Positions 1-31,268 of a stretch of 64,000 nt of DNA are shown in pieces (position 1 is the first letter of the stretch; every line of letters starts with the position of its first letter). Under the pieces are notes generated by a model that did no database searches, was not told the DNA's origin, and saw only the letters and a list, made by a program, of their open reading frames with translations. The DNA comes from Candidatus Omnitrophota bacterium (GTDB lineage Bacteria; Omnitrophota; Gorgyraeia; Zapsychrales; Zapsychraceae): NCBI GenBank assembly GCA_035292445.1, contig DATDQB010000013.1, positions 82,132 through 146,131 on the forward strand. Reading direction: 5' to 3'. Position numbers and translations under genes: made by a program.

Positions 1-3000
1 AGCATCCACACCTTTGACTTGCCTGTAGCTTCATCATACACAACGGTAAATTCCATATCCTGAACGTCGCGCCTGTTTTCCTCCAAATAAGCACCGATAA
101 GCCGGATATGTTTGGCCACCTCCAATAAACGTTCCATCAACCGATCGAAATTCAGGATTTCTTCCTTCCCTAAACTGCCATCGACAACTGCCTCTCCTTG
201 GGCATTGAAAGCAAAATCGATATTAAACTCTTTTGTCCCATCCCCCATGTCTCTGGTATGGGCAACACCTGTACCGGAATAATCGTTCAGATTTCCCAAA
301 ACCATTGATTGAATAGTAACGGCCGAACGTCCTTGTTCCGCCGTTAAGGGCGGATCCTGATTTGCTCTATAAACAATGGCCCGTTCATTATTGCTTGATC
401 TCATAACGGCCACAACCGCCCCTACCACCTGCTCATCAATATCCTGTGGAAACTCCAAACCTCTATCAGCCAATATCTGCTTAAACGTTCTAATAAGTTC
501 TTTTTGGGCTTCGACAGAAAGTCGGCTCTGATTCGATACCCCTTCTCTTTCAAGCATCCTTTCTTTCACCAACTTAAAATTGACCGGACTATTATCAACT
601 TCTTCTTCGATACCTAAGACCGTTTGACCGTACATTTCAATAGCGCGGGCATAACTTCCCCAGGCGCTTCTCTCATTGGTCGCTTCAACCAAAGCTTCAA
701 CCGTTTCATCGTTAAGACCTAAATTTAAGACCGTTTCCATCATGCCCGGCATGGACTCTGGGGCCCCGGAACGGACAGAAACGAGATGAGGAATGCCTTC
801 TCCCTTTCTAGCCCCCCACACCGTTCCCATGGACTGCGCTTGAACTCGAACAAGTTGTTTAATACGTTCTACAAGTTCGGATGATAATTTTCCTGTCTCA
901 CCCTCCTCAAAATGTAGCGTCTGCTCTGTGGCTACCGTCCCGGCCAGAGGAACGCTAATCGGATATTTACCGGCTAAAACATCTTCTCTTGTAATGCCAA
1001 ATCTTGCTAACCATGCCGGATCATCGGCATGGGCCTTTTGCCACTCTAAAAATGCTCTTGCATCATCATGGGCCATTTCAGCTAAATTGGCGCCCTTTCC
1101 TCCCAATACCATCTTCATTTTCACATTCCCTTTAGGCAGCTGGCGATCGATATCGGCGCCATAGTTGCCAACAAAATAAATCGGCGGATGCTCATCCCCC
1201 TCGAACGCCTCGGTGCCGGCGAGCATAGCGGAATCTTCCGGAACAAAAGCGCTCAAGCTCACCCCAATGGGCAACCCCCGCTTGTTCGGCCAAAGCATGG
1301 GTTCTCTGGTGGTCTTCAAACCGGCAAGAACAACTGCCAAATGATATTCTTCGTAAGGCAATATATACTGACCAGGCCAATGCGTTCCCTGATAGGCCGG
1401 AGCCAGCGTCTGCTCCAGCGCCATGGGTTGATTGATATCATTAGGAACCTCCTCAACCAATTGGTTAGCGCGCGGCTTGTGCAGCTCCAAAAGCCGCATG
1501 TGGTAATTCGGCCTGCCGGGTTCTTTTTCTATCCATCGCCTGAGGAAATTAATGAAATCAGCGGCAACCACATAACCAGGGAGCAAACGTCCCTGCGGTT
1601 CATCATCGCTGTACGAACCCTCAAATTGGGAAATGACCAACTGTGTCAACATCTCTTCATCGGAAGGAATATCATTTTCTTTTATGCCCAACTTTAATAA
1701 CGCTGCCGTTAAACGCGAGCGATCAACGGATTGAACGGCGCGACGAATAATTTCTCTGGCCTGATCTCTATCCTTTATTTTTAAACGTCTTTCATGAGGA
1801 ATAAACTCCTCGGTGTGGACAAAATCATCTTTGTCATAACCGCTAAGACCTATGGCATCCAATCGAGCCTTTAAATCCTCATTAAAATCTTCCGGGTCCG
1901 TAACATCGGCCCACATCACAATAACATGCAGCCCCTCAATGCCATCAAACTCCGCCATGGTGTCACGTTCCCGCCCCAAGGCCGCTTCATTGAAATCGGA
2001 AACCACAACCACCAACGGATGCGTTTTCAGATTCTTTCCGCGATCGGTGTACTTAAGAATATAACGGGTAACATCCCTTGCCAATTGAGCATCTCCGGAT
2101 CCCATATTGAAGAACCCGACAGACTGTTTATTTAAAGGTGTATTGTGATAAAGGTCGCGCACAAAGGTAAGAATACCGTCTTTAGTAATCTCTCCCGTCT
2201 CTTCATCAAATTCTCCCATATACGCATGATGCGCGCCGGAGGAACCCCAGATATCTTTGACCCGCCCGAATCGTCCCATGTGTTCATCGCTGTTTAGATT
2301 CAGCCGATTGGGATCACCGAACAAAAAATCCTCGAGATGAGCATCAATCAATGAATAAGCATCTGTCACGCCGTAAGAAGTGACTTTATCAAAAAAGGCT
2401 CTTCCCTTGTCTGTCAGGCTTACGAGTTGTTTATCAGCTTTAACAAGACCCTGCGCGTGCAGAAGCCGGAAAGCCTCATAAATAAAACCTTTGTTAAACT
2501 GTGCCGGCAGACGATCAAAAAAGAGATACCCGTTTTCATCAAACAACTCAAGAATGGAAGGGCCGATCTTGCTGATGATCCGATTTTCTATATTAAAAAA
2601 AGGCATCCCTAAAGAAACCATGACAGGGCTCATGAGCATTCCAATAAAATAGGAATGGATATGAATCAGGCCGCGCTGCAGGACAGGCATGGGCAACTGC
2701 GAAGAAAGCTTGGGTAAAACGATTTTGACCATTTCTAAATCTTGTTGATCCAACTCACTGGCAAGAATATTAAATATTTCAGAATATTCACTGTAATTTT
2801 TCTTCTTTAAGCGTTCAATAACACGTGTATATCTTTCGACCTTATCAACCAACTCTATAAATTCATCGTACGCCTTATGCACATCATCGCCTTTCCTTAT
2901 TGGCGGCCCCCGGCGAAAATAATCATGATATTCCAAAGCATTGGCTATGGCCCCATCAAAGGTTTCTAAATAACCCACTTTCGCCAGCTCGACCATCAAC

Positions 3001-4793
3001 CATCCCAAGTCCGTCAAGGCGACCTGTGTATCTTCATAGGCTGGTTTCATGCGCACAAGCCCCAAATGGGCCATATTCTCAAAAGCGCCGTAGATGTAAG
3101 CAAGATTTTCCTCACGGCCCTGGACCACTTCTTTGATCGAAACAAATCGGGAAGATCCGGGTTGGCCAAAACGGCTATCAAAGATTCCTTGTTGAGCCAG
3201 CGTATGCACGATGGGAACGCCTTTTTGCCCGTTGATATGCCGGAATAACGGATAAAGAACGTCCCTGGCCTGACTGATATTAACCCTGCCATCCAGGGCA
3301 ATACCCAGGCGGTCATGACGGCGTTGGGCCTCCCGAAGAGACATCAGTATGCCATCGATCTGGCGCTGTAAACGATCCCAATCTTCTCTTTCGCTTTCTT
3401 TATCAACTGTTGAAATGTCTCGTTGTAATCGAGTCAACCGACCACTTAACTCTCGAACCTCTCGTCCCATCCGCTCATGTTCCGCGACTAAAGTTACATA
3501 GGGCGCTGTCCTTAAGTTTTCATCGGCCGTCGCTTGAACCGTCATGGCATTGTCCAATTGAATATAAGGACCCGCCCTCAACGCTTCATACTCAGTCAAG
3601 TCTGGACGTACGCCTAAGAGCCCTACCGTAATACTATGAATGGACCCGTGGGCCAGCTGAGCGGCATCTGCCGGTGTCAGCTCTTCCACGCCAATAGGCG
3701 TGATTTCAGGCACAATCTTTGCCCCACCGGAGAAATACTTTCTGGGAATGATCTCTTGAGTGGCCGGGTCGTAATCTTCTTTGATAAAATCGTACACGCC
3801 TTTTTGGAAGGCCTGGAGATACTGCTCGTAAATTTTCTGCTTGGCCTGCGGGTCATCCGTATCAACGCCTTTGGTCTTGTTCTGATCGACATAAACTTTG
3901 GAAAGAATACTTTCTTTGAGAGTTTCCTTGTACCACGTGGCCAGAATGACGGCGTTATAGATCTGGCGCAAACCGGCGAAGGTCTTGCCCTCATTGATCT
4001 CTTTCTCGATCTCAGGAAGAACAATTTCTCGCATAATTTGAGTCATCAGTCGTCGGTCATCAGTCGTCAGATTTTCATGCGTTGACTGAAGACTGATGTC
4101 TGATGTCTGATGACTGATAGCTAAATAATCCTCTTCCAACATGACCTTCAGATGGCTGGCAACGATATAAGCGCTGCCTTGATGCTCCAAGACAACAGCC
4201 TTGTCCGGCACGATCCACACCTTGTTAAAAGTATTCATCGGGATGTCGGTCGTGCCGAATTTCTCAAAAGCTTTTTTGTGGACGCGTTTCCAGAATTCTT
4301 TGCCTAAATCATCTTCCGGATAGATCAGGGAAGCCGTCAGCTGTTTTAAAAGATAATCCTGACTCAAAAGATCGCGGCCCATTTCGGTGACACCGAAGGA
4401 TTCCGGAACAATACGACCTTTTTCGTAAGGTGAGAGATTAACCCAAAGCTCATCTTCCGGAACCGTTAAGGAGGCCAGAAAATATTTAATCAATCTGCTC
4501 GCTTCAACCCGCAAGGCTTCGCCCTCCAGGTTTTCATCGCCTGTATCAACAATAAAATCGAATTCAAGAGGATTGGTAGGATTCGGCGTGATGCCTTTAA
4601 TCAGAGCGGGCGTAAATCCGGGGCTTAGGGCGACCATGGTTCCGGGTGCTGGCAAGCTGAACATCCCCGGCGCGGGTAGAGATTGCGCAAAGGCCGTTGG
4701 CGGCGGAATAATAGCGCTTAAAAGAAAGCTGGCGCAAATGAAAGCGCAGAAAAGACGGTAAGCTAAAGATTTTTTGTATTGTGGATGAAACAT
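1..4793 (-). CDS. Giant multi-module secreted protein, paralog A. Start codon at 4793; ORF leaves the window at nt 1 (more than 1597 aa here). Signal peptide, conserved N-module, unknown middle module, then a pyruvate,phosphate dikinase-like module (nt ~1245 to 1 and beyond).
   Basis: Hand translation of the minus strand from ATG at 4793 gives MFHPQYKKSLAYRLFCAFICASFLLSAIIPPPTAFAQ-SLPAPGMFSLPAPGTMVAL..., then a block closely matching the N-termini of the 5097..12530, 14589..27587 and 27900..31268 ORFs (TVPEDELWVNLSPYEK, TEMGRDLLSQDYLLKQLTASLIYPE, NTFNKVWIVPDKA, PEIEKEINEGKTFAGLRQIYNAVILATWYK, IPRKYFSGG). I saw no in-frame stop down to nt 1. The ORF track omits it because its stop lies outside the window. 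The downstream module carries PPDK hallmarks: MVLGGKGANLAEM, HLVSVRSGAPESMPGMMETVLNLGLND, AIVYRANQDPPLTAEQ, GTGVAHTRDMGDG, DMEFTVVYDE. A Shine-Dalgarno-like AAGGGCAGGA lies upstream of the ATG. Confidence 0.75.
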   Translation of the reverse strand, partial: MFHPQYKKSLAYRLFCAFICASFLLSAIIPPPTAFAQSLPAPGMFSLPAPGTMVALSPGFTPALIKGITPNPTNPLEFDFIVDTGDENLEGEALRVEASRLIKYFLASLTVPEDELWVNLSPYEKGRIVPESFGVTEMGRDLLSQDYLLKQLTASLIYPEDDLGKEFWKRVHKKAFEKFGTTDIPMNTFNKVWIVPDKAVVLEHQGSAYIVASHLKVMLEEDYLAISHQTSDISLQSTHENLTTDDRRLMTQIMREIVLPEIEKEINEGKTFAGLRQIYNAVILATWYKETLKESILSKVYVDQNKTKGVDTDDPQAKQKIYEQYLQAFQKGVYDFIKEDYDPATQEIIPRKYFSGGAKIVPEITPIGVEELTPADAAQLAHGSIHSITVGLLGVRPDLTEYEALRAGPYIQLDNAMTVQATADENLRTAPYVTLVAEHERMGREVRELSGRLTRLQRDISTVDKESEREDWDRLQRQIDGILMSLREAQRRHDRLGIALDGRVNISQARDVLYPLFRHINGQKGVPIVHTLAQQGIFDSRFGQPGSSRFVSIKEVVQGREENLAYIYGAFENMAHLGLVRMKPAYEDTQVALTDLGWLMVELAKVGYLETFDGAIANALEYHDYFRRGPPIRKGDDVHKAYDEFIELVDKVERYTRVIERLKKKNYSEYSEIFNILASELDQQDLEMVKIVLPKLSSQLPMPVLQRGLIHIHSYFIGMLMSPVMVSLGMPFFNIENRIISKIGPSILELFDENGYLFFDRLPAQFNKGFIYEAFRLLHAQGLVKADKQLVSLTDKGRAFFDKVTSYGVTDAYSLIDAHLEDFLFGDPNRLNLNSDEHMGRFGRVKDIWGSSGAHHAYMGEFDEETGEITKDGILTFVRDLYHNTPLNKQSVGFFNMGSGDAQLARDVTRYILKYTDRGKNLKTHPLVVVVSDFNEAALGRERDTMAEFDGIEGLHVIVMWADVTDPEDFNEDLKARLDAIGLSGYDKDDFVHTEEFIPHERRLKIKDRDQAREIIRRAVQSVDRSRLTAALLKLGIKENDIPSDEEMLTQLVISQFEGSYSDDEPQGRLLPGYVVAADFINFLRRWIEKEPGRPNYHMRLLELHKPRANQLVEEVPNDINQPMALEQTLAPAYQGTHWPGQYILPYEEYHLAVVLAGLKTTREPMLWPNKRGLPIGVSLSAFVPEDSAMLAGTEAFEGDEHPPIYFVGNYGADIDRQLPKGNVKMKMVLGGKGANLAEMAHDDARAFLEWQKAHADDPAWLARFGITREDVLAGKYPISVPLAGTVATEQTLHFEEGETGKLSSELVERIKQLVRVQAQSMGTVWGARKGEGIPHLVSVRSGAPESMPGMMETVLNLGLNDETVEALVEATNERSAWGSYARAIEMYGQTVLGIEEEVDNSPVNFKLVKERMLEREGVSNQSRLSVEAQKELIRTFKQILADRGLEFPQDIDEQVVGAVVAVMRSSNNERAIVYRANQDPPLTAEQGRSAVTIQSMVLGNLNDYSGTGVAHTRDMGDGTKEFNIDFAFNAQGEAVVDGSLGKEEILNFDRLMERLLEVAKHIRLIGAYLEENRRDVQDMEFTVVYDEATGKSKVWM

Positions 4794-12843: not shown

Positions 12844-12918
12844 CGTCCCTGTAGCTCAGGTTGGATAGAGCATTTGCCTTCTAAGCAAAGGGTCGCACGT
12901 TCGAATCGTGCCAGGGAC
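12844..12918 (+). tRNA. tRNA-Arg (anticodon TCT)
   Basis: Clean cloverleaf: acceptor GTCCCTG/CAGGGAC, D-arm GCTC-AGGTTGGATA-GAGC, anticodon stem TTTGC/GCAAA with loop CTTCTAA (anticodon TCT), T-arm GCACG-TTCGAAT-CGTGC, discriminator A. CCA is not encoded. Confidence 0.85.
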
Positions 12919-12999
12919 ATTCTTTCTTAGTATATGCTATGCCCTGCCCCGACGCGCTATTACATAGCGGTCGGGGTCCCGACCGAGGTGAAACCGAGC

Positions 13000-13074
13000 G
13001 TCGGGATAGCTCAGGTTGGATAGAGCATTTGCCTTCTAAGCAAAGGGTCGCACGTTCGAATCGTCCCGGGGTCA
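13000..13074 (+). pseudogene. Degenerate tRNA-Arg-like copy. Its 57-nt core (D-arm to T-arm) is identical to the upstream tRNA-Arg, but its acceptor-stem strands (GTCGGGA ... CGGGGTC) cannot pair and its T-stem has one mismatch.
   Basis: The core TAGCTCAGGTTGGATAGAGCATTTGCCTTCTAAGCAAAGGGTCGCACGTTCGAATCGT is repeated exactly. The 5' strand GTCGGGA instead pairs with the upstream TCCCGAC to form a separate hairpin. I could not fold a canonical cloverleaf. Confidence 0.5.
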
Positions 13075-13086
13075 TTTTCTTTAACC

Positions 13087-14058
13087 ATGAAGATAAAACC
13101 CATCTATCGATTCTTTATATGGCTCGCCTTCATCGGCCTCGTTATCCTGGCCTTCCTGGCCTATTACTTCCAGAACCATGAAAAAGACCTCTTCCTTGCC
13201 GCCCTGCGGTCTTCTCTCGACCAAGGCATCAGCGCTTCCGATGTCGATTATGATTTCCCCTTCGGGTTCAGCTTGGATGACTTCCAGATCGAAGGCGTCG
13301 TTCAGGCAAAAAAATTAAGCGCCCAGCTTGACCCGCGTTCTTTCATAGAAAAAAAGATCATCCTTAGCCAGATGACCCTTCACCAGCCTATTATCACCTG
13401 GCGTAAAGAAAAAAAGGCGGCCGCTATCGCGGAAAATCAAAATGTTTCCAACGGGCCTTCGGTTGGCACCCCGAAAACGATCCCCCAGGAGGCATCAAAA
13501 CTTATTATCAAGCAGCTGCGCATAAAAAACGGCCGTTTCCATTTTGCCGATGAATCGGCCATCCCGGCCCTTTCCTTTAAGCTGGATAATCTCCAGATGA
13601 AAATCGAAGACCTTATTTTTCCGCTGTCTCCAACGGCAACCACCTTTCAATTGAAAGCCAATCTGATCAAAGAAAACGCCCCGGTTTCGGGCAGCGTTGT
13701 GCAAAGTAACGGCTGGATCGATCTGGCCAAAAAAGACCTGGATGGAACTCTTCTTATCATTGAATCGGACGGTAAGACCGGCTTAAGCGCCCATGCGATC
13801 TCAAAAAACAACGATTTAAACGTCGAAGGCAAGATCAAGGCGCAAAACTTGTTCAAACAGTCCGGCGAAAATCCATTGGAGACGACTGTGGATAATATCG
13901 TCCTTAACACCTTATCGAATATGGGCATCGAGATCGGTGCAAGTTTTTCCTTTAATACCAAACTCGATGATTTTCGCATCGAACAGATCTCTTTCTCAGG
14001 AAGCGTCTCCACTCATGAGGTTCCCGCAACCGAGCCGATGAATCCTGTTGCGCCGTAG
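13087..14058 (+). CDS. Membrane protein with an AsmA-family-like N-terminal region (323 aa): one N-terminal TM helix, then a periplasmic beta-rich region.
   Basis: The N-terminus MKIKPIYRFFIWLAFIGLVILAFLAYYF is a single TM helix. The architecture resembles the start of the 1033-aa AsmA-like protein at 31606. The gene is on the opposite strand to the giant genes and sits just after the tRNA-Arg pair. Confidence 0.55.
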   Translation: MKIKPIYRFFIWLAFIGLVILAFLAYYFQNHEKDLFLAALRSSLDQGISASDVDYDFPFGFSLDDFQIEGVVQAKKLSAQLDPRSFIEKKIILSQMTLHQPIITWRKEKKAAAIAENQNVSNGPSVGTPKTIPQEASKLIIKQLRIKNGRFHFADESAIPALSFKLDNLQMKIEDLIFPLSPTATTFQLKANLIKENAPVSGSVVQSNGWIDLAKKDLDGTLLIIESDGKTGLSAHAISKNNDLNVEGKIKAQNLFKQSGENPLETTVDNIVLNTLSNMGIEIGASFSFNTKLDDFRIEQISFSGSVSTHEVPATEPMNPVAP

Positions 14059-14172
14059 GGAATTTGTGATAGAATTCTGAACGTTAGTTGGTGGGTGCCC
14101 TGACTTCTCTTTAAAAAAATTATGGTAGTCAGGACTACCACCATTTTCTCTAAAATTTAAATTGTGGTAAAT

Positions 14173-26500: not shown

Positions 26501-27587
26501 CATCAACGCCCCCTGAGAAATATTTACGCGGGATGATGTCTTTTGTCGCCGGGTCATAGTCTTCCCTAATAAAGTTATAGACGCCTTTCTTGAAGGCATC
26601 GAGGTATTGCTCATAGATCTTATTCTTGGCGTCCTTATCTTCAATATCAATGCCGCGGATCTTGTTTTTGTCCACGTAAACCTGGCCTAAAAGAGAATTT
26701 TTCAGGTTCATCTTGTACCACGTCGCCAAGATCATGGAACTGTAGATCTGGCGTAAACTGGCAAACGTCTTGCCTTCATTGACTTCCTTTTCGATCTCGG
26801 GGATAACAACATCCTTAAGAATCTGGGATTGGATGGAGCTCATTTCAGTCGTCAGTCGTCGGTCGTCAGTCGTCAGTAACTGATGACTGACGTCTGATGT
26901 CTGATGACTTAATGCCAAATAGTCTTCCTCCAGCATGACCTTCAAATGGCTTTCAACGACAAAAGCGGTGCCGTTATTTTCATACACCAGCGCGCGGTCA
27001 GGGACGATCCATACCTTATTAAAGGTATTCATCGGGATGTTGGTCGTGCCGAATTTCTCGTAGGCCTTATCTTTGACGCGTTGCCAGAATTCTTTGCCCA
27101 GCTCCTGATCGGGGTGGATCAAAGACGCCGTCAATTGTTTGAGGATATAATCCTGCGCTAAAAGGTCGCGGCCCATTTCGGTCGTACCAAAAGCTTGGGG
27201 AATGATACGGTCTTTCTCATAAGGGGAAAGATTTACCCAGAGTTCTTTTTCGGGAACGGTCAGGGAAGCCAAGAAGTATTTAACTAATCTATTCGCTTCT
27301 TCGCGAAGCTCTTCGCCCTCGAGGCTCGTATGGCCAGTATCAACAATAAAATTAAAATGTAGGGGATTAACGGGATCGATCGTGATGCCTTTGACCATGG
27401 CCGGCATAAAGCCAGGGCTTGGGGAAACCATCACCCCCGGAGCCGGTAAATTAAGATATGTGGGTACGCCTTGGGCGTAAACGGATGCAGGCGGCGTGAC
27501 AGAGCTAAAGATAAAGGTAAAGGCGATAAAAGCGGATAAACCTTTGTGGAATCGGGTATTTCTTCTTCGCTCGAGAAAGCTTATCAT
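14589..27587 (-). CDS. Giant multi-module secreted protein, paralog C (4332 aa): signal peptide, conserved N-module, unknown modules, malate synthase-like module, repeated linker modules, isocitrate lyase module, unknown and coiled-coil region, class I fructose-bisphosphate aldolase module, possible GlpX-like module, conserved C-module.
   Basis: A 13 kb uninterrupted ORF with AGGGGGA upstream of the ATG at 27587 and signal peptide MISFLERRRNTRFHKGLSAFIAFTFIFSSVTPPASVYAQ. Malate synthase motif: HHIKFSNDGRWDWGASAIRLAW. ICL signature: HIEDQAHGCKMCGHMSGKVL plus LIVARTDAESAEWITG and YYLGGWDAQ. Class I FBA motifs: GRGRNYFASDGSPSTG, LKGSAIKVSMVTSGD (Schiff-base Lys context) and IVFLSGGQTADQAARNLNAIVKEAKRVGAPWRYAASFSRA. 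The C-terminus is VGGIDLNPALLNLQIKRDGRGIPLP...GFIPVIINIAPINNMPMLLGI. Confidence 0.85.
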   Translation of the reverse strand: MISFLERRRNTRFHKGLSAFIAFTFIFSSVTPPASVYAQGVPTYLNLPAPGVMVSPSPGFMPAMVKGITIDPVNPLHFNFIVDTGHTSLEGEELREEANRLVKYFLASLTVPEKELWVNLSPYEKDRIIPQAFGTTEMGRDLLAQDYILKQLTASLIHPDQELGKEFWQRVKDKAYEKFGTTNIPMNTFNKVWIVPDRALVYENNGTAFVVESHLKVMLEEDYLALSHQTSDVSHQLLTTDDRRLTTEMSSIQSQILKDVVIPEIEKEVNEGKTFASLRQIYSSMILATWYKMNLKNSLLGQVYVDKNKIRGIDIEDKDAKNKIYEQYLDAFKKGVYNFIREDYDPATKDIIPRKYFSGGVDGRDMAMLVAEIEGDLGQFPEAVQQQVINASSPTGRFFDTDVDLLETIAGDSAQLAVDEASSRLADQAVITDPSTATDAERQQRLARRPEIWREEPPNADDLKELLEVAERHGITPITEGHLNTITIVRRRVHSAISQVNGRFNSVYREAQDLIDYQIYWSILDVVLGRIPTISDDYKRLKGYQDIIERVARSLASRIVVHPDFDKLPVFRREDVPANQGQIMLVKPKVQFQSSHAYIVPFIRNEALLFDDYSDKPDHIRLLTTSDAAMVAGVEDLDIREVLDQKGQAVDLSEFEGDVGSGKIINPRSQALIAHLMEKFGERQLELLKKRGERINAAERGENSYIPNMDDKVSDAYGNTLTVREILEGDWKVDEAPERLTKAGGILSGPWNLFFALSAFGSNVLDEVEKKFGISLKEKTDEEIIAIIEGNPAIAEYIEAMRPVRIFGDDEDAAGIDSDKRFAEHQIGADIINGRLKSVKHGDKNKIYRVLPRKYWPTVTKRPSGLQLWSRHESYKGMPVSMMMRDLAYYVEPNFEALEADPRQGIDIVVPKLEHWEEVKLFVETAIETKEFLGLKEEINLIFMHEVEEATLMLELMFWAGRHHIKFSNDGRWDWGASAIRLAWFLKKRVWPGLDKIGMKDKPFRPYTGLNLSASKKRGVHPEGGMWTGMTSRRYPDGAPMDPAADEIATTGFIGDKIDERKQGKLQAWAATPIAIPKENEIFRADVEEMEVAPPVYNEGLYADLLHVPEGNIARAEIYKNLYELLTYTLGYRKQGAAVAVDNLHNGGRTMFDLATAKKAQYWLWTLIKSGAKVQEGPDTGTIITWEYLSQIMDEVARNTQARYMESGFSDEDIAIAREINKSIITSKNMVLHESIVFNTTLDDRTLIDVKRKLKRFFAIHDNADNLYDRRILFAPFQLADAAMLTPEEEIRVESGVLTRAELLNLQERLQTVAAGYAPFNPQGEEASNSIIEEQLEKIANALRDGNYIDTAMAAGKSDDRAPELGPRVARRDSLTGEIVPEEPASIEHMTDMIASLRERDQKGTPKEGDAAMVAAQLEELKEMVVAFEDARIREEGVGLLEMIQTLQRAIRDSGGQNVPLTTAQEAIQTFYRILIPRSSGDVLSFRTLAAYDQDKIGPLQRKIKEVTETLERLVEKTVVSVAETDAAMAVTERYRDADIFEAMILSDYFSTRILLDRIEDYSVIEGMISLDFRAMRISNQFPKNAKRFVSQFDDLQLRDKVTRALDYLSLMEPERRRVLYRFRDRLQSEEASNSYILSKIADFDDSRRRSYYPESSILQNLDSVGFERLDKLRMDPHRIAELAYGETFDNMFRAVDAAAGDILFTQRKKMGHLGKRGGTSQEPIDAAMVGDESAQKEWFRAIDRLAQVRERIEKAKYEDGDIGDLPSLLEEERVLEETIDRTRAQWDDSIDNAMGAVRILEAVLTSEEGYRTADELRGAIAELEKRLGQIGNELVEYQDQVVIVEGLEGEKEQTELAIREIRERITSLTSAAAMAASDKDRAPELGPRFVRGDPLSGELVPEEPAASEKHMRGIIASLRERDQKGTPKEGDAAMAVDARAVAEEYFNWLLQSVAGFKAQYDRALPGGMYEAQVEADLDRAEKELAFLAALLGKEVSVDKLNRVDRKSAIEQLARLPDELAGLIKRWEKIKDKNDEEWARSRDPEERYNEVPTFGDVKGTVSSRLRDVWAMIEVGKERFTGALSPEVLARYEALVAQMNIPGPEGGMVARMGGDAAMVASLEERAQIMQERWNQQRAEGRWIKRVWSAEKVAAAQGPVLRTWSIANHMAEKFNGKLRRYFRDVKSIDTFGPSNELMAEAMAVSEILQAEPITKTKLLDVAYDYEVDALYNHLASLGFIDAETGVIQDSFSMMENVKQEYYERIDDAFKERSGIIFALLQQNLFKHIEGYYLGGWDAQMLRGKGDRARDQYDYLGILAARISKLNTWHAIYQEIARAQMTPEQRSLVRPVDFYVPIFVDFDEGHLKVQEMARRVLSMGEEETHIAAVHIEDQAHGCKMCGHMSGKVLDSTDHWIKTLLEARFEFDRMGLNTLIVARTDAESAEWITGHDDGRDQKFILGVTEADEAERLEEAVKALEKDLVAKKMPAEKIAATITRFRSDWQKYIPLIHDSKGRVQTYQDVITAANQSGLEASELQKVHNQWKIMANLLTIDEIVARTIAANQDKIGMTVEEWRAFVAAIPYERDVRFFDLVKAKAREIGIRLIDSSQIQLVDEAPEAFSGTINVLWDFQLTRSVEKRSRTIWMINSGMEMAIARSKSALPYTDISWFEQHHPHIGEVKQWSTALDAEARRLLFAEGWYDEILERFDQAFRDRIKTQVEKIIETYHNNRPVDPDSYSYALKALQELDLAHDDAVGLLDATTRIKANNTSPSFYWPLAKTEDGSRLMTPEERKAFLPEQGKYSQFNFITYGGSTFLHAATMQFLQGTDGKGGYLRDGMDGLAQWQEIGRKQKSGMSINPQVFAGNRGLEFMTSVAIGETAAISFEGGKGDTMKDRAGLKAKDDLMGEIHRQIAEKETALQHDLSVNELADLINKLRISLIGVRTRITQLRTRERSLKDGPEERSSIAQQIAQLTTDRHTIEGLLKRAISRIRPLEGADEVAFPLEDVSLDHIEERFAAPETFYPEPAQDIENELYILRAGQRAILLEIGQLSDELGSSELNEKRARINRLIGQGEQLLSGDSAMMAADRILEDLLAGRIMVKDAYDRLLSLGESSEDDVIALIVNSGLGLGLLQVMDEINRDPNPVGTVVDGEQEEVDDLDTGATQVLPPRPISEYPPEDEDHAMLTDVQKTLLRERVQSLTGRGRNYFASDGSPSTGNALLKRYGFKIVDAKAYPDADKVDGANYLLRERMRRMFYTAPGIQYVFGGIIVQDESVSYVDDEDKPLLATHVEGRGISIIHKTDRGIDDDTQSPRPSREGLDPEKLSKPKGLGIDNLRAIMDMIPTSHADKFRQTFTIDTDAGLPTQRNIEANMEMLAQHVLDVQLLGRVPTPEPEVLIKGSHDIEASAEANRRILKVYTEAASRLGVDLKGSAIKVSMVTSGDKAPKDTPEEVARATVAVHMDSLPPELGTIVFLSGGQTADQAARNLNAIVKEAKRVGAPWRYAASFSRASKETALTVLNGDFVNEQAAQNEFVRASFRIQAASLGVMDEYDALIERIGVEAFVARVDVYGRMVQVNIDNEQLGQMIRDFDAAMAAQPNKEEATRLRAIRDELPVILTTHTAAKLTALGLRGAYQKILDVVKSVSDTSEQRTQIALLFTQLHQTTQRGEFAEVAIMVLGKEGTIAKDELKRMQTAITDVVDGFAKRIFERTIKELGIIMMVRVSEGFGRDEVAESLKSNEVIMPNLIQHEVEAIKAAIDRGDEFYLSENGRYYPILDAIIDVVEGTNQFVTNSGNRSLEEAPENEAGANSDIVVGRGVRDLGNVPDGYVHQFITNVGEDADALRAAAVEVGGEKYHLYDPELYAAHPKEGILAYLKFLAAIRRQELSQVQEEIIVMNRKRETAFVRAIEEVKQEYGIQGVSVVQKTLQDGTVAHGLRATLTPALYEAATGRSYGVHKTVITVGGSAEGFMNLAIAGAAKYIGAVAGVRVYNAKMNKNAAGEELPDLSERYNFKLAEASELRVIRESYGDAGAILNGQKFFTEQDVKGDVVGIFTVIANDWVFGQTGTQATEGGQTSVVIKIYNVGNELKAEIFPVEVDHTIVSIDAAMTEQGDGAMLTPAEAWEIAEDLLEEMGDEELFGDRVGLLARLIHYLDGKELSTPLSEDAPDLYSKGDLTRATHINSARDFKVREIKFRRIIREFLEGQLIVNFPSEEEDVSSSAGIDRAVTAQETTPVGGIDLNPALLNLQIKRDGRGIPLPVEMQPLQNIHIDGFIPVIINIAPINNMPMLLGIADFIPDEPIEQAQDEEEKAPALSMRKFTLRDVLDRIAIFKG
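21780..21985 (-). repeat. Internal ~200-nt direct repeat within giant gene C, copy 1; the other copy is at 23340..23550 (~88% identical). Each encodes a duplicated ~65-aa linker segment.
   Basis: CCATCGCCGCGTCACCTTCTTTGGGAGTTCCCTTCTGATCTCTCTCCCTCAATGACGCTAT... occurs at both loci. The protein copies are AAMAASDKDRAPELGPRFVRGDPLSGELVPEEPAASEKHMRGIIASLRERDQKGTPKEGDAAMAVD and TAMAAGKSDDRAPELGPRVARRDSLTGEIVPEEPASIEHMTDMIASLRERDQKGTPKEGDAAMVAA. Confidence 0.8.
26845..26925 (-). repeat. Hairpin-forming short tandem repeat (TCAGTCGTCAG/CTGATGTCTGATG units) inside the N-module of gene C; a homologous insertion sits at 4050..4125 in gene A.
   Basis: Gene C has CAGTCGTCAGTCGTCGGTCGTCAGTCGTCAGTAACTGATGACTGACGTCTGATGTCTGATGACT. 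Gene A has GTCATCAGTCGTCGGTCATCAGTCGTCAG...CTGAAGACTGATGTCTGATGTCTGATGACTGAT. Both are imperfect inverted repeats built from 8-11-nt units. They encode SDVSHQLLTTDDRRLTTEMSS and SDISLQSTHENLTTDDRRLMTQ, which are absent from paralogs B and D at the same position. Confidence 0.7.
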
Positions 27588-27899: not shown

Positions 27900-30800
27900 T
27901 TACCTGTCAAGCCCTAATTCTTGCTGCATGTTCAGATCGCGTTCCACCCGCGTGATCACCGGCTCAAAGCCACCAAGGTTTAAATTTTCAATGGTGGAGG
28001 CTGCAATCGTCATTTGGACGCCGTTCCCCTCCCGCTGAACGACCAAATTCAACATAGCCATATTCAAATCAATACCACCCCTACTATCCCTGTTACCCGT
28101 ATCAAGCTGGGCCATGCCGCGCCCTATAACCTGAGCCATATTAGAAATTAGCCTCTGCTCTCTGATACGAGCCAATGAATCGGCAGAGATATTCGGTCTT
28201 TGCTGTAATACTGATAACAACCTTTCTTCTCCCCCATCAAAGGCTTGGGGATTATTTCTAGCTAAATCGCCAAAAGCGGTCACGATAGGTTCAAAATCAA
28301 TCGATTGAATACCACTGGCACTCATAACTTGTTCAGCCATGGGTCTAAAGACATCTTGGAAGACTTGGGGATTGGCTATATTTTGCGGCATCAATCTTAA
28401 GAGGGTATCCGACTGCTGCCTCGCGCTGGAAACCTCTCCAAATTGCCGAACCACAAAAGCGTTCGAAGCCTTTTCCGCGGTTTCAGGAGCGGCTCCTACT
28501 TCACGTAGGCCTGCTTGAAATTCGCTTAACGAACGTAGCGCTGCTGGATTTCTTTCGGCTAGTTGCGCAACCTGGCCGGGCAATGCCTGGATTTCCTCAG
28601 ATGTAAATCGAAGACCGAATTGAGACACCTCTGGCGCCCGTAAAGAGTCCCTATAATCATCTTCAAAGGCCTGCCCCATAGCCGCCTCTACAACAACACG
28701 GGCAAGTGTAGGGTTATAGCTCATCCGATCCCCAGCAGAAGAGGATTCAGCAACCGCCTGGTAAATCCGCCCAGACAGCCCTTCGCTATTATCTATAACA
28801 ATACCTGCCATTCTTTGGGCAAGCGGCTCAGCCACGTTCAAACTCCGTAATTCGGTCAAATAAGTGCTTCTTAAGCCATCGCGGTCTCCCAAGAGCTCAG
28901 GCTTGGCAAGGACATTCACTAATGCCTGCGCCGCCGGCTGGGCTTCCGATGGGTTAAGAGGGGTTGTCCGATTAAGCGCCTCGGCTACATTAATAACATT
29001 CGTTCGTTGATCTCCAACCAACGCAAATCGCGTCGAAGAACTGGCCAAATGGCTATCAACACCTTTGAATTCCTCCGCTTGCCCGGCCAAATTATTAATC
29101 CGGTCAATAACTTCTTTGGTAGCGACCCGGCTCGCCAAATTACGGACAGAATCTTCAGGCATCTGCGGCTGCGCGATCCTTAAGCCTTCGGTTATTTTTT
29201 GCTCGAGTTGATCCAATGACCCATATTCGCGTAAATTTTGCATTACAGGTGTAACAGCTGCAATTTCATCTTCATTAAAATTATCCGTCTGCAAAGCGGA
29301 CGTCACAATGCTTTGCATACGCGGCTGATTGACGGCGTAAAGAACAGGCATAACGGATATTTGCATATTGAATTGATAACGGCCCTGGGTTTGGTCGGCC
29401 ACTTCGCGCATGGTATCCAAATCCGAGGCAATTCTTGCGGCAGTAACAGCCGTCGGCCGGTCGATGCCCTCCCTTTCCAAGCCAGCGGTAATGGCCGCTT
29501 CGTATTGAATAGGCGTTGAGAAAGCTTCCGGTGATTGCGTCCTAAGGCGTGTTATGACTTGAGCTGTTGTTGCCGCTACAGATCGGGCTTGGGCAGGTTC
29601 GATTTCTCCTTCTCCTATTAATCTATTCGCTACGCTCGCGCTATACGCATTGCCGGCTAATTGTTGATTGGCAGCAATACCGCTGGCGACATCAACTAAT
29701 ACCGGCTGAGGCGTTGAGCGTTCAAAAACCGTTTGGGCTAAAGATGGCAGGCTCTTTTCGACCGTAGGGAGTGTTTGTTGGGAGATCCCTCGAGAGCTTA
29801 AAACACTCATAATCTCTTGAGTGGTACTTCGCGGCGCCCGGCGTAACGTGTCCCCCACTATACCCACCACTAAACTAATTTCTTCCTGCGGCACTCCTTG
29901 CTGCCCTAAAGAACGCCCAAGCTCGGCATTAAAAGAAGGAGCGTTTGTCCTAAGAACGGCAGCCATATTAGGCAAAGTGATGCCCATGTCTTGTGCGGCG
30001 TTTGGTTCCCGGTTTCCCAAGGCGAAAGAGACTCTTGCAACCCTTTCAGGGTTAGTCGTGGCTCTTTCCAACAGCCTATTGACCGAAGTCATCATAGCCT
30101 CATCAAGGCCGGCTTGGGCCAAGGGTACTTCTGCGGAAACCTGCGTTGTCCCTGCCCGAACGACTTGAGCCGCTCGATCCCCCGCAAAACCTCCCGAATA
30201 ATACCGCTTCGGCACCAAAGAAAATGTCTCCAAATCAAATTCTTTTGTCGTATACTCATAAGCTCCCTGCTGGAATGTCTCCAGATATTTATCAAAAATC
30301 TTTTCTTTAACCGCCCTGTCTTGTGTGTCTACGCCTTCAATTTTATTCTTATCGACATACACTTGGCTTAAAAAACTCTCTTTCAAATTTTGTTTATACC
30401 ACGTTGCCAGAATCATGGCATTGTAAATCTGCCTTAAATTGGCGAAATTCTCCCCTTCATTGACTTCTTTTTCAATTTCCGGAACAATGACTTCCCTGAC
30501 AACATTACTGGCAATAGCATTGATCTTCTTGACGTCATCTTCCTGCATCCGGTCCGTGCCGAATTTCTTATTATCCATATTTTCCTTTAATCCCAAATAA
30601 TCTTCCTCTAGCATCACTTTTAAATGGCTGTCCAAAACAATGGCGTTGTTACCTCTTTCTAAAACAACCGCTTGATCAGGGACAATCCAAATCTTGTTAA
30701 ATGTGTTCATCGGTATGTCAGAAGCGCCGTAGAGCTCGTTGGCTTTGCTTTGGACTTTTTGCCAGAACTCTTTTCCTAACTGATTTTCGGGATACATTAA

Positions 30801-31268
30801 AGATGCGGTGAGCTGCTTGAGAATATAATCCTGGGCTAAAAGGTCGCGCCCCATTTCTGTATACCCGAGATTTCTGGGAATAATCCGATCTTCTTCATAG
30901 GGAGAAAGATTAACCCATAACTCCTCTGAAGGAACGGTAAGAGCTGCCAGAAAATATTTGACAAGCTTATCAGCCTCTTCTTTCAGGGCATCTCCATCAA
31001 TATTCACATCACCCGTATCGATAATAAAATCGAATTTTAATGCATCGTCGGAGTTGACGGTTATCGCCTTAATAAGAGGTGGCGTGAATATTGGACTTTG
31101 GGTAAGCAATGTCCCCGGCGTGGGTAGCTGCAGGGCGCTGGAACCGACGGTTTGAGCGGAACTAAGATAGGGAGTTAAAACAAGGTGGCAGGAGAAACAA
31201 AGCACTGTTAAACAGCTTAAAAATCGAAAGCCTGGTTTGCTTCTTTTTCTTCGGGATAAAACTTCCAT
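27900..31268 (-). CDS. Giant-family paralog D (1122 aa), the minimal member: signal peptide, conserved N-module, ~700-aa low-complexity Ala/Gln/Ser/Thr-rich region, conserved C-module.
   Basis: GAGGA/GGTGGA lies upstream of the ATG at 31268. Signal peptide: MEVLSRRKRSKPGFRFLSCLTVLCFSCHLVLTPYLSSAQ. The N-module shares TVPSEELWVNLSPYEEDRIIP, TEMGRDLLAQDYILKQLTASLMYPE and PEIEKEVNEGENFANLRQIYNAMILATWYK with the other paralogs. The C-terminus is GGIDLNMAMLNLVVQREGNGVQMT...GGFEPVITRVERDL. Confidence 0.8.
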   Translation of the reverse strand: MEVLSRRKRSKPGFRFLSCLTVLCFSCHLVLTPYLSSAQTVGSSALQLPTPGTLLTQSPIFTPPLIKAITVNSDDALKFDFIIDTGDVNIDGDALKEEADKLVKYFLAALTVPSEELWVNLSPYEEDRIIPRNLGYTEMGRDLLAQDYILKQLTASLMYPENQLGKEFWQKVQSKANELYGASDIPMNTFNKIWIVPDQAVVLERGNNAIVLDSHLKVMLEEDYLGLKENMDNKKFGTDRMQEDDVKKINAIASNVVREVIVPEIEKEVNEGENFANLRQIYNAMILATWYKQNLKESFLSQVYVDKNKIEGVDTQDRAVKEKIFDKYLETFQQGAYEYTTKEFDLETFSLVPKRYYSGGFAGDRAAQVVRAGTTQVSAEVPLAQAGLDEAMMTSVNRLLERATTNPERVARVSFALGNREPNAAQDMGITLPNMAAVLRTNAPSFNAELGRSLGQQGVPQEEISLVVGIVGDTLRRAPRSTTQEIMSVLSSRGISQQTLPTVEKSLPSLAQTVFERSTPQPVLVDVASGIAANQQLAGNAYSASVANRLIGEGEIEPAQARSVAATTAQVITRLRTQSPEAFSTPIQYEAAITAGLEREGIDRPTAVTAARIASDLDTMREVADQTQGRYQFNMQISVMPVLYAVNQPRMQSIVTSALQTDNFNEDEIAAVTPVMQNLREYGSLDQLEQKITEGLRIAQPQMPEDSVRNLASRVATKEVIDRINNLAGQAEEFKGVDSHLASSSTRFALVGDQRTNVINVAEALNRTTPLNPSEAQPAAQALVNVLAKPELLGDRDGLRSTYLTELRSLNVAEPLAQRMAGIVIDNSEGLSGRIYQAVAESSSAGDRMSYNPTLARVVVEAAMGQAFEDDYRDSLRAPEVSQFGLRFTSEEIQALPGQVAQLAERNPAALRSLSEFQAGLREVGAAPETAEKASNAFVVRQFGEVSSARQQSDTLLRLMPQNIANPQVFQDVFRPMAEQVMSASGIQSIDFEPIVTAFGDLARNNPQAFDGGEERLLSVLQQRPNISADSLARIREQRLISNMAQVIGRGMAQLDTGNRDSRGGIDLNMAMLNLVVQREGNGVQMTIAASTIENLNLGGFEPVITRVERDLNMQQELGLDR

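Follow-up and report, generated by a model that had tools for sequence, protein, structure and literature searches.

Four giant genes in tandem on one strand of a Candidatus Omnitrophota MAG (A to D; Table 1) encode proteins in which conserved terminal modules, here called the N-cap and the C-cap, enclose strings of metabolic enzymes, and these caps define a phylum-wide, multi-copy family in which nearly every member carries different cargo. We tentatively propose, at a probability of roughly 0.45, that the family represents Omnitrophota-specific, Sec-exported modular carriers in which short marks between the cassettes are cut by a protease and the cargo acts outside the cytoplasm of the producer. 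If this is true, the producer would export a metabolic pathway, probably to a host, and C2/C3 carbon of that host would be redirected into activated sugar.

The array lies in a stretch of 64,000 nucleotides (the window), in which the ORF calls reproduce, in position and length, the four genes described in an earlier note made from the sequence alone. Gene A begins at 4793 and runs off the window start, with 1597 aa inside the window, and reaches 4030 aa on the source contig (L080). The tRNA genes reported within the array are tRNA-Arg, tRNA-His and tRNA-Pro. The trio of tRNA-Arg, a DUF748 gene and tRNA-His also adjoins a family member elsewhere (L005), and we regard it as genomic context. The AsmA-family genes noted as flanks are present here but, as a family trait, hold at 1 of 78 loci; comparison of the neighbourhoods of these 78 loci found no gene kept beside family members. 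A secretin gene lies ~9 kb away from D.

Table 1. Features of the array and its surroundings (positions in the window)
Feature	Position	Strand	Residues (aa)	Details
Gene A	3..4793	-	first 1597 of 4030	signal peptide, N-cap, AprA-like methyltransferase module, PPDK start
A signal peptide	4686..4793	-	1-36	ends PPPTAFA/Q; read from translation; heuristics
A N-cap	3699..4685	-	37-365	
A AprA_N / winged helix / Methyltransf_36-like module	1236..3545	-		between D-x-A-M 414 and 1187; Pfam
A PPDK cassette, N-terminal part	3..1226	-	1190-1597	PF01326; runs off window
Gene B	5097..12530	-	2477	HLF18319.1 (NCBI)
B signal peptide	12417..12530	-		
B N-cap	11442..12416	-	39-363	
B UGPase cassette	9186..10976	-	519-1115	UDPGP family; GGLGT at 614-618; PF01704 E 1.4e-13
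B alpha-D-phosphohexomutase cassette	6876..9176	-	1119-1885	PF02878/PF02879
B cassette	6225..6866	-	1889-2102	no Pfam match at E<=5
B two receiver (CheY-like) cassettes	5391..6179	-	2118-2255, 2259-2380	PF00072 E 1.7e-31, 2 stretches
B C-cap	5178..5351	-	2394-2451	then acidic tail with SLLN end
Gene C	14589..27587	-	4332	HLF18321.1 (NCBI)
C signal peptide	27474..27587	-		
C N-cap	26496..27473	-	39-364	
C malate synthase A-like cassette	23748..25700	-	630-1280	PF01274; TIGR01344; 3cux/3cuz
C eight short unassigned modules in a row	21249..23738	-	1284-2113	D-x-A-M between them
C isocitrate lyase cassette	18354..21239	-	2117-3078	PF00463; ICL2-like long form with coiled-coil tail
C class I fructose-bisphosphate aldolase cassette	16821..18041	-	3183-3589	PF00274 E 2e-36
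C divergent class II (GlpX-like) FBPase cassette	15279..16811	-	3593-4103	profile comparisons
C C-cap	14712..14885	-	4235-4292	
Gene D	27900..31268	-	1122	HLF18322.1 (NCBI); begins with signal peptide
D N-cap	30171..31154	-		
D middle, Ala/Gln/Ser-rich	28089..30095	-		
D divergent C-cap	27909..28079	-		
tRNA-Arg(tct), DUF748 gene, tRNA-His(gtg)	12845..14250	+		between B and C
DUF748 gene	13087..14058	+		flank
AsmA/DUF748/YhdP-like gene	31531..34632	+		flank
tRNA-Pro(tgg) and AsmA/DUF748/YhdP-like gene	31438..34632	tRNA -, gene +		context

As the earlier note had proposed, all four proteins share an N-terminal module of ~330 aa (50–66% identity) behind a Sec-type signal peptide predicted by sequence heuristics, and B, C and D share a C-terminal module of ~55–60 aa (37–64% identity); the paralogues have nothing else in common. 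The N-cap gives a confident predicted model (pLDDT 84) for which no solved structural relative was found, the C-cap matches no Pfam family, and neither Pfam nor further domain searches returned a recognisable peptidase in the caps. When the n-, h- and c-regions of 71 family members were scored by heuristics, the n-region was net positive in all 71, the h-region strongly hydrophobic in 70 and the c-region of the form A-Q or A-G in 60; the members examined lacked a Tat consensus and internal TM segments, and a lipobox was virtually absent. A positive n-region followed by a PP..A-x-A/Q c-region predicts an N-in orientation with the remainder of the protein exported. At E<=1e-3 the family comprises at least 1310 proteins, nearly all named Omnitrophica or Omnitrophota (many of the database matches being labelled partial), and species-representative genomes contain 584 matches or more, a single MAG having as many as 7 loci. 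The architecture of caps around variable cargo recurs in hundreds of MAGs. Same-strand tandem arrays occur at 16 of the 78 loci, the C-cap stands at the end of 36 of 55 complete members, and a minimal member (P0108) consists of N-cap and C-cap. Almost no cassette is common to several of the 78 members and cargo differs between syntenic loci; other members carry, for example, PGK, HMGL-like, CofD, ROK, SNF2 helicase, PRTase, MTase, GNAT and SMODS-NUDIX domains.

The enzyme assignments of the earlier note proved correct, and most of the Pfam families that it predicted for the array were recovered. PPDK in A has the GGKGANLAEM motif (TIGR01828, E 7e-70) and PF01326 in the window; PF00391 and PF02896 follow past the window edge, as do the His-domain GGMASHAAVVARG and the PEP-binding domain, and the enzyme is complete on the source contig. 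For B, PF01704, PF02878, PF02879 and two copies of PF00072 were found, whereas PF02880 gave no match at E<=0.01; its UGPase cassette has an orthologous, 54% identical cassette in another family member (L019), and its phosphohexomutase keeps SASHNP (Ser1329), DPDADR (1517-1522), EES (1643-1645) and RPSGT (1809-1813). All three enzyme families expected in C (PF01274, PF00463 and PF00274) were present, with PKLE, GRWD and MFDLATA kept in malate synthase, KMCGH, DFDEGH, EDQ, ARTDA and NTSPSF kept in isocitrate lyase relative to Mtb ICL2 (at most 38% identity to any other ICL), and the Schiff-base Lys in IKVSMVT together with EPE, KFR, LSGGQT and FSR kept in the aldolase. The run of short modules in C repeats a ~60-aa unit at 74% identity. 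Two cassettes were absent from the earlier note: the methyltransferase module of A (PF23525, E 5e-21; PF23589; PF23526) and the FBPase of C, which has the DVVEGT metal motif and whose profile matches E. coli GlpX (hhalign probability 92.5%, E 4.9e-7) and, in the PDB, has class II FBPase/SBPase as its nine best matches (E 3e-7 to 3e-4). D, expected to lack domain matches, gave nothing in Pfam.

The recurring D-x-A-M motif occurs 25 times in the array proteins against 1.56 expected (maximum of 7 in 1000 shuffles), and none of the 25 falls inside a domain envelope although envelopes make up 46% of residues (P = 2e-7). Family-wide it occurs 119 times against 11.8 expected, with Met strictly preferred. 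This Met lies near the native N termini of the aldolase and isocitrate lyase and 5 residues ahead of each receiver core of B. Three variants (DxAM, DxA[VIL]L and [SA]SP[VIL]) are each enriched in the family, and DxAM and SSPV are anticorrelated. The two junctions around the orthologous UGPase cassettes occupy the same alignment columns and read DRAML/DRAML in B, DNATL/DIATA in L019 and SSSPV/VSSPV in L001; such lineage-specific sequences in equivalent columns suggest a trans-acting reader, probably a protease. Against this reading, no cognate protease was found for D-x-A-M, and all three variants are missing from 13 of the 61 long members.

In the carrier model, the Sec signal peptide would be cleaved and the highly conserved N-cap would lead the chain, followed by a variable string of apparently complete, normally cytoplasmic proteins, whose catalytic competence is predicted from their motifs, and usually closed by the ~60-aa C-cap and an acidic tail. 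The short mark ahead of every cassette (D-x-A-M here), its Met roughly at the N terminus of the free enzyme, would be recognised by a factor acting in trans. Most likely this is a protease, which would cut the string into native-like enzymes; the caps may serve export or targeting. A host or prey cell, as a source of ATP, UTP and acetyl-CoA, would be the most plausible site of action for the cargo, and in gluconeogenic order the array could run from isocitrate lyase and malate synthase through PPDK, class I aldolase, class II FBPase and phosphohexomutase to UGPase, with UDP-glucose as the end product. We count the host-dependent traits of Omnitrophota (PMC10066038) in favour of this carrier model. 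Given that isocitrate lyase and aceB are absent from all 176 complete Omnitrophota genomes surveyed and that the TCA cycle is fragmentary (Nielsen & Lui 2026, bioRxiv 10.64898/2026.06.07.730766), the cargo does not appear to be housekeeping. Against the model, the pathway is incomplete in A–D, where PGI, PEPCK, malic enzyme and all steps from PEP to triose phosphate were missing, and we identified no machinery that would carry chains of 1000–4000 aa over the outer membrane into another cell.

Alternatively, the proteins may stay in the periplasm or at the surface as a metabolon that pre-processes sugars or phosphosugars scavenged from lysed hosts before import, D-x-A-M being a flexible-linker or docking element. 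Such a metabolon was proposed for similar domains by West-Roberts et al. (2023, bioRxiv 10.1101/2023.11.21.568195), sugar-metabolism domains dominate the Omnitrophota giants (Nielsen & Lui 2026), and the signal peptide, the absence of TM segments and the secretin gene ~9 kb from D agree with it. We nevertheless hold it to be unlikely: SNF2 helicase, PRTase and PGK cargo has no obvious extracellular substrate, and a purely structural linker would not exchange DxAM for SSPV in concert at homologous junctions. Moreover, PPDK, UGPase, malate synthase and receivers require ATP, UTP, acetyl-CoA and a kinase phosphodonor, for which we know of no supply in the periplasm or outside the cell. It is rather improbable that the hydrophobic N terminus is an uncleaved anchor, or is unused for export, and that the proteins scaffold the central metabolism of the producer in its cytoplasm. 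The enzymes are of cytoplasmic types with intact catalytic motifs, an inner-membrane-anchored cytoplasmic reading was considered for the TM-only half of the catalogue of Nielsen & Lui (2026), and KEGG-style annotation could overlook embedded domains that perhaps fill part of the pathway gaps; however, a glyoxylate shunt needs citrate synthase and succinate dehydrogenase, both of which most Omnitrophota lack (same source). In addition, the n-region (positive in 71 of 71) and c-region predict export, the cargo is, unlike housekeeping enzymes, nearly unshared among genomes and syntenic loci, and no role is left for a 330-aa N-cap with 50–70% identity.

The enzyme folds might also be displayed as surface binding modules or adhesins for which catalysis is irrelevant. 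Aldolase, enolase and GAPDH are displayed at the surface of many pathogens, and an enzymatic signature is missing from D and from many short modules. A role in attachment is the general view of giant Omnitrophota ORFs (PMC10066038). We consider display improbable for this cargo, as catalytic and metal-binding residues persist where identity to the closest free enzymes is 25–38%, a retention that implies selection for catalysis, and the enzyme set makes up one pathway and no random draw of abundant proteins. There is a slim chance that the junctions act at the DNA level, a captured gene having contributed its start codon as the ATG of D-x-A-M and the conserved junction serving recombination between paralogues. 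The coincidence of Met with native N termini, the extreme cargo turnover, the tandem arrays and a codon skew in D-x-A-M that favours GAC and GCG, within the window as well as in other genomes (p = 0.003 and 0.02), agree with this; yet the skew is modest, no Shine-Dalgarno-like sequence precedes the motif, the conserved unit is only 12 nt, and equivalent junctions elsewhere (SSSPV or DNATL) have no ATG, which places the constraint on the peptide. The skew hints at an extra nucleotide-level constraint outside the carrier model. Joining of separate enzyme genes by misassembly or by stop-removing sequencing errors is extremely improbable. The sequence does come from a MAG, paralogous N-caps are repeats of the assembly-breaking type and many matches are labelled partial; but four contigs, drawn from three independent assemblies, carry an identical protein B with its neighbours unchanged, C has two further near-identical cluster members, the architecture is repeated in hundreds of MAGs, and a stop-free 13-kb frame is impossible by chance.

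The earlier claim that no protein family of this architecture had been described appears to stand for the caps and the linker motif but was too strong as a claim that nothing similar is known, because exported Omnitrophota giants with metabolic domains are catalogued in two preprints: FBA, FBPase, PGM/PMM, TPI, GPI and PPDK in predicted extracellular regions (West-Roberts et al. 2023), and a ‘multi-enzyme metabolic cluster’ class, with PGM and receivers among its domains (Nielsen & Lui 2026). These clusters and Archaeovorins share with A–D the phylum, an exported or membrane-associated location, many distinct metabolic Pfam domains and, among these, PGM/PMM, FBA, FBPase, PPDK, receivers and methyltransferases. 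The catalogues cover proteins of at least 10,000 aa or, in West-Roberts et al., giant genes, mostly with numerous TM helices, HEAT repeats, GT5/GT1 or dockerins, whereas the proteins of the array have 1.1–4.3 kaa and a signal peptide only, and are defined by N-cap, C-cap and D-x-A-M; isocitrate lyase and malate synthase, both in the array, are not reported there as cargo. The terms ‘linker’, ‘cleavage’ and ‘polyprotein’, the caps and D-x-A-M are absent from both preprints, and the searchable literature appears to contain no description of the caps, of the punctuation or of the coherent gluconeogenic cargo.

A precedent for the carrier model is Chlamydia, a host-dependent bacterium of the PVC superphylum, which secretes glycogen enzymes and the PGM CT295 (PMC4829429; PMC9251005) and so runs a UDP-glucose/glycogen pathway outside its own cytoplasm. 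Its enzymes differ in being single proteins with type III signals in the inclusion lumen, rather than Sec-exported, capped and punctuated strings. MARTX toxins of Vibrio and relatives are also secreted and very large; both their ends are conserved and enclose effector cassettes that vary by strain and are freed by inter-domain-linker proteolysis inside the target cell. They use type I secretion without a Sec signal, glycine-rich repeat caps and their own cysteine protease cutting after Leu, features undetected by Pfam in A–D, whose cargo is metabolic enzymes instead of toxins. Polymorphic toxins (CdiA with VENN, Rhs with PxxxxDPxGL) also form multi-copy families in which a short conserved motif divides the conserved delivery part from cargo that is exchanged rapidly, but carry one C-terminal toxin and an adjacent immunity gene, whereas the cap family has many internal cassettes, a C-cap, no toxin domains and no immunity-like neighbour. 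In viral polyproteins and the gingipain/adhesin polyproteins of Porphyromonas gingivalis, short sites are read by a protease that releases the units, and site and protease co-evolve; A–D share with them one long product punctuated by short sites, with processing putative in A–D.

Four giant minus-strand open reading frames (ORFs), A–D, make up the array exactly as the earlier note had read them from the sequence, and that observation is fully confirmed (coordinates are collected in the table). Gene A is open at the window edge; on the source contig its product has 4030 aa, and the part of that contig fetched to read further into A reaches aa 3232 of 4030. The array is also interrupted by tRNA genes and flanked by AsmA-type genes, as described: B and C are separated by a DUF748 gene that has tRNA-Arg(tct) on one side and tRNA-His(gtg) on the other, and D is followed by tRNA-Pro(tgg) and an AsmA/DUF748/YhdP-like gene. 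The remaining window is ordinary chromosome (that is, genes for RNase PH, Ham1, QueC/QueE, Glu racemase, amidase, a secretin, an Rce1-like protease with TPR repeats, RsmB, inositol-1-P synthase, HemB, MetE and CysS); GC is uniform along the window, and the array has the same GC as its flanks. B, C and D are deposited at NCBI, all from a Candidatus Omnitrophota MAG, as HLF18319.1 (‘UTP--glucose-1-phosphate uridylyltransferase’), HLF18321.1 (‘class I fructose-bisphosphate aldolase’) and HLF18322.1 (hypothetical). Such single-enzyme names on proteins of 2477 and 4332 aa hide the multi-enzyme architecture and would mislead automated pathway reconstruction. Four contigs, drawn from three assemblies, carry identical copies of B, and this is evidence against a chimera.

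Positions of the four giant genes and of the module duplicated in C
Feature	Window coordinates	Strand	Protein
Gene A	4793 to window edge, open	-	1597 aa in window
Gene B	5097..12530	-	2477 aa
Gene C	14589..27587	-	4332 aa
Gene D	27900..31268	-	1122 aa
Duplicated ~60-aa module of C	21786..21980 and 23352..23537	-	C aa 1351-1412 and 1870-1934

Shared sequence among the paralogues is confined to ~365 aa at the N-terminus (50-66% identity) plus, in B, C and D, ~57-70 aa at the C-terminus (37-64%), and the cargo of A–D is mutually unrelated. In all four, a signal peptide ending in A-x-A|Q precedes an N-terminal module (N-cap) carrying WVNLSPYE, DYxLKQLTASL, NTFNKVWIVP and RKYFSGG; the C-terminal module (C-cap), GGIDLN..KRD..G.PLP..GF.PVIINI.P..NLPLLLG, is present in B, C and D and matches no family in Pfam. 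By sequence heuristics, the proposed Sec-type signal peptide appears genuine, with a positive n-region, a hydrophobic h-region and small residues at -1/-3. Among the 71 scorable members of the wider family, the n-region is net-positive in 71, the h-region strongly hydrophobic in 70 and the c-region A-Q/A-G after a PP motif in 60. Tat export of folded enzymes is rejected (Tat consensus in 0/71), as is lipoprotein anchoring (lipobox in 1/71), and no internal transmembrane (TM)-like segments were found in the window proteins.

Caps with variable cargo do recur: the N-cap finds 1310 proteins at E<=1e-3, and almost all of those that carry a name are from Omnitrophica/Omnitrophota. Species-representative genomes give at least 584 matches, and a single MAG can have up to seven loci. 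The 78 loci that we fetched hold 55 complete ORFs with a median of 1545 aa and a maximum of 3340 aa (some ORFs longer than 3700 aa run past the locus end and are outside these 55); the C-cap closes 36 of the 55, same-strand tandem copies occur in 16 of the 78 loci, and a minimal member of 500 aa (P0108) consists of N-cap and C-cap alone. A C-cap profile search of a large database returned only short contig-end fragments and no cargo census. Cargo is hardly ever common to two members of the fetched loci, and the types found elsewhere are cytoplasmic (PGK at 343 bits, HMGL-like, CofD, ROK, SNF2 helicase, PRTase, methyltransferases, GNAT, SMODS-associated NUDIX and PGM). Even loci syntenic with the window (L005 and L049) bear other cargo. 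A phage-borne or mobile family is rejected on the basis of only 3 matches in 2.9 million viral contigs and a GC equal to that of the flanks.

Behind the C-cap runs an acidic low-complexity tail (in B, window 5100..5177), which ends in (S/I/F)-L-L-N-COOH in 7 of 39 complete members (B, L023, L029, L043, L049, L078 and P0029), often with DP(L)D(R)K before it; judged from these sequences, the tail could form a third conserved part of these proteins or act as a recognition signal at the C-terminus.

Between the caps, Pfam and NCBIfam bear out every enzyme that the earlier note had named by eye: PPDK in A; a UDPGP-type UGPase, phosphohexomutase domains I and II and two receivers in B; and malate synthase, isocitrate lyase (ICL) and class I aldolase in C. 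D has no Pfam or NCBIfam domain, again as predicted. All cassettes score below the NCBIfam equivalog cut-offs and are therefore divergent members of their families. On full-length A, the PPDK comprises the ATP-grasp (PF01326), mobile His (PF00391) and PEP-binding TIM-barrel (PF02896) domains that had been expected, including the phospho-His loop GGMASHAAVVARG. The aldolase keeps the Schiff-base Lys (Lys229, rabbit numbering) and the equivalents of Glu187, Lys146/Arg148, Ser271 and Arg303 (E 5e-29 when aligned with 6rng and others), and is a divergent member on its score of 150.6 against an equivalog cut-off of 250. The malate synthase A-like cassette (~25% identity; 108.6 bits versus a cut-off of 594.5) retains the catalytic Asp (MFDLATA) and the Mg ligands PKLE and GRWD, with the catalytic-Arg motif RPRG reading RPSG. 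All four signature loops of the phosphohexomutase, for phosphoserine (SASHNP), metal (DPDADR), sugar (EES) and phosphate (RPSGT), are present; Pfam matches PF02878/PF02879 and reports no domain III or IV. The second receiver of B has the canonical DD...D...S...KP pattern. The UGPase cassette has no match among PDB sequences at 1e-5, so that its assignment rests on PF01704 and the GGLGT motif. The ICL cassette, which is below the equivalog cut-off, carries KMCGH (the second Lys of K-K-C-G-H replaced by Met), DFDEGH, EDQ and NTSPSF; among 5.8 billion proteins, no ICL is more than 38% identical to it, and its closest relatives are stand-alone enzymes of Acidobacteriota and Chloroflexota, followed by ICL2-type enzymes. 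Judging from this pattern of conservation, we regard it as an old, diverged cargo under selection for catalysis.

Two modules had been overlooked in the earlier note: an AprA-like winged-helix/methyltransferase module in A and, directly behind the aldolase in C, a 511-aa cassette that is class II FBPase-like. The latter has 71 relatives among 1.84 billion representative proteins, nearly all embedded in proteins of 1000-4400 aa. With C 3593-4103 as query, BLASTP gave no significant pairwise alignment to E. coli GlpX and phmmer against PDB gave no match, the assignment being resolved solely by a profile built from 14 relatives. In hhalign this profile pairs with E. coli GlpX at a probability of 92.5% (E 4.9e-7), and class II FBPase/SBPase structures take the first nine places in its PDB search (E 3e-7 to 3e-4; including 3roj, 6ayy and 1ni9), with a match that spans only the central ~140 residues and keeps the D-x-x-E-G-T metal motif. 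Pfam at E<=5 gives no credible match for B 365-515 and 1889-2102, C 368-626, 1529-1725, 1935-2113 and 4115-4222, or D 392-1060. Within a run of eight short modules, C also holds a ~60-aa module (…DRAPELGPR…SLRERDQKGTPKEGDAAM) twice, at 74% identity.

The cassettes are punctuated by the motif D-x-A-M, which occurs 25 times in the window against 1.56 expected and never inside a domain envelope (0/25), though envelopes make up 46% of residues (P = 2e-7). Its Met precedes each receiver core by 5 residues and is ~6-11 residues from where the aldolase and ICL alignments meet free-enzyme N-termini, a placement that identifies the cassettes as whole proteins, each beginning with Met. Family-wide, D-x-A-M is enriched 10-fold (119 versus 11.8 expected), with a strict preference for Met and then Leu and Ala/Thr/Ser. 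Enrichment is also seen for two other junction motifs, D-x-A-[VIL]-L (42 versus 11.1) and [SA]-S-P-[VIL] (42 versus 7.4); 13 of 61 long members have none of the three. Proteins with more D-x-A-M tend to have less SSPV, and vice versa (rho -0.31, p 0.017), and orthologous UGPase cassettes carry, in the same columns at their two flanking junctions, DRAML/DRAML in B, DNATL/DIATA in L019 and SSSPV/VSSPV in L001. The position of the site is thus fixed and its sequence switches in concert across the junctions of a lineage, as co-evolution with a sequence-specific reader predicts. This suggests that the junction motif is read in trans, the simplest reader being a putative processing protease. That D-x-A-M serves as an internal translation start, or marks a ribosome-binding site that has been kept, is contradicted by the absence of a Shine-Dalgarno-like sequence upstream and by the same junctions in other lineages, which read SSSPV or DNATL and have no ATG. 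The motif is also skewed in its codons, with Asp as GAC in 13/25 and Ala as GCG in 17/25 cases in the window (versus ~26% each gene-wide); the skew is weaker yet significant in other genomes (p = 0.02 and 0.003 across the 78 loci; GCG 41/103 versus 27.5 expected), and could be due to shared descent of the linkers or to a nucleotide-level signal.

The array's enzymes combine into a single gluconeogenic route that comprises ICL, malate synthase, PPDK, the class I aldolase, the class II FBPase, the phosphohexomutase and the UGPase, and in which the direction-specific FBPase and PPDK are present instead of their glycolytic counterparts; no PGI, PEPCK, malic enzyme or lower glycolysis was found in B, C, D and A to aa 3232 of 4030. 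PPDK, UGPase, malate synthase and receivers require ATP, UTP, acetyl-CoA and a kinase, respectively, and we know of no supply of these in the periplasm; the cargo therefore probably acts elsewhere. ICL and aceB occur in 0/176 complete Omnitrophota genomes, most of which also lack citrate synthase and succinate dehydrogenase (Nielsen & Lui, bioRxiv 10.64898/2026.06.07.730766), so that the producer’s own metabolism could not feed a glyoxylate shunt. Omnitrophota have host-dependent, possibly predatory traits (PMC10066038), and Chlamydia, of the same superphylum, secretes glycogen enzymes and PGM and conducts sugar metabolism outside its cytoplasm (PMC4829429, PMC9251005).

We propose that these genes belong to an Omnitrophota-specific family of exported cargo-carrier polyproteins, here with gluconeogenic cargo. 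The architecture of the family is a direct observation; for the full explanation, which includes presumed processing and delivery to a host, we estimate a probability of about 0.45. In a hitherto unrecognised effector-delivery system of this kind, the new-fold N-cap and the C-cap would guide Sec-exported polyproteins, with complete metabolic enzymes as cargo, into host or prey cells, a lineage-specific protease in the target cell would cut at D-x-A|M (SSPV elsewhere) and restore native Met N-termini, and the cargo would install a glyoxylate-shunt and gluconeogenesis route from host acetyl-CoA and pyruvate to UDP-glucose for the parasite; that all of these hold jointly we consider unlikely. Were processing and delivery true, this would be the first bacterial case of an entire anabolic route exported as a polyprotein, would explain the recurrent metabolic domains in ‘extracellular’ Omnitrophota proteins, and would change how pathway gaps are read, given that ICL and malate synthase are scored absent in 176/176 complete genomes (Nielsen & Lui). 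Omnitrophota are widespread, uncultured, host-dependent and ultra-small, and their giant proteins have been hard to interpret; the family offers a handle on these proteins and on how the hosts are exploited, as it is searchable by a conserved cap pair, its short punctuation motif predicts exact cleavage products, and its cargo looks like a pathway, not adhesion repeats.

The architecture read by the earlier note stands, whereas its claim that no comparable protein family had been described was overstated. FBA, FBPase, PGM/PMM, TPI, GPI and PPDK domains have been reported in predicted extracellular parts of Omnitrophota giants, for which the suggestion was either pre-processing of sugars outside the cell or a TM helix that had been missed (West-Roberts et al., bioRxiv 10.1101/2023.11.21.568195), and the general phenomenon is thus already known. 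In the two Omnitrophota giant-protein papers and full-text searches, we found no cap-defined, signal-peptide-only family of 1-4 kaa, no new-fold N-cap or C-cap, no inter-cassette motif or lineage variants, no whole-enzyme cassettes with intact catalytic sites and no glyoxylate-shunt cargo. Class 1 multi-enzyme giants of Nielsen & Lui are alike in their Omnitrophota host (shared by the window proteins and nearly all family matches) and in the many distinct Pfam families that tile one polypeptide, none dominating, but that catalogue starts at >=10,000 aa, compared with 1122-4332 aa here. The signal peptide and/or TM segment of that class is represented here by a signal peptide alone, with no internal TM segment, and ‘SP-only’ topology is a minority class of ~9% of the catalogue (Nielsen & Lui). 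The Archaeovorins of West-Roberts et al. differ in their dominant HEAT repeats, GT5/GT1 glycosyltransferases and TPR, none of which is found here at E<=0.01. Archaeovorin genes have a T2SS/T4P-like secretion locus before and pilZ genes after them; here there is one secretin (40049..41680), ~9 kb from D. No gspE/F or pilZ was found in the window ORFs scanned, and no conserved neighbours recur across the 78 family loci. As defined here, the cap family has cassettes bounded by D-x-A-M or a lineage variant, which never falls inside domains.

MARTX toxins have glycine-rich A/B/C repeat caps, a cysteine protease domain (CPD; Peptidase_C80) and a type I secretion signal without a Sec leader. Membership in that group fails because the leader here is of the Sec type and Pfam finds no RTX-type repeats or CPD; functionally, they are nevertheless the closest analogue, with caps, exchangeable effector cassettes and inter-domain processing (the last presumed here).

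A dedicated partner encoded next to the array (protease, AsmA or secretin) is rejected, as no window gene recurs by family members beyond the local synteny with L005 and L049. In the former (MAG JAUIER01), the trio tRNA-Arg(tct), DUF748 gene and tRNA-His(gtg) of window 12845..14250 is kept beside a family member at 7462..8734, with its orientation relative to the family gene inverted and with different cargo; in the latter, 5153..9404 is syntenic with the block QueC, small ORF, Glu racemase, amidase and secretin (window 34669..41680) and adjoins a 1219-aa family member with unrelated cargo. The Rce1-like (CPBP) intramembrane protease with TPR repeats (41727..43037, minus strand) adjoins the secretin; it is the sole protease-like gene seen near the array and is not kept beside other family members.

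Among other members, L035 (JGI/ENA MAG CAYJXI01) has at residues ~370-420, directly behind the N-cap, a second hydrophobic segment ending in AYAQ that resembles a duplicated signal-peptide-like or TM element, and its cargo shows JAMM-like HxH..D and HExxH motifs by eye, with nothing from Pfam. In L021 (CAZIRV01), the cargo at aa ~900-2500 includes a Pfam-supported SNF2-family helicase as well as regions that look sigma-70-like by eye; nucleic-acid-directed cargo in an exported carrier does not fit easily with a role outside the cell. In the window itself, a 158-aa HTTM-domain ORF within 47005..47987 (plus strand) matches only profile positions 119-258 of 259 and overlaps the next ORF, of 169 aa, by 4 nt, and may represent a split or truncated HTTM gene.
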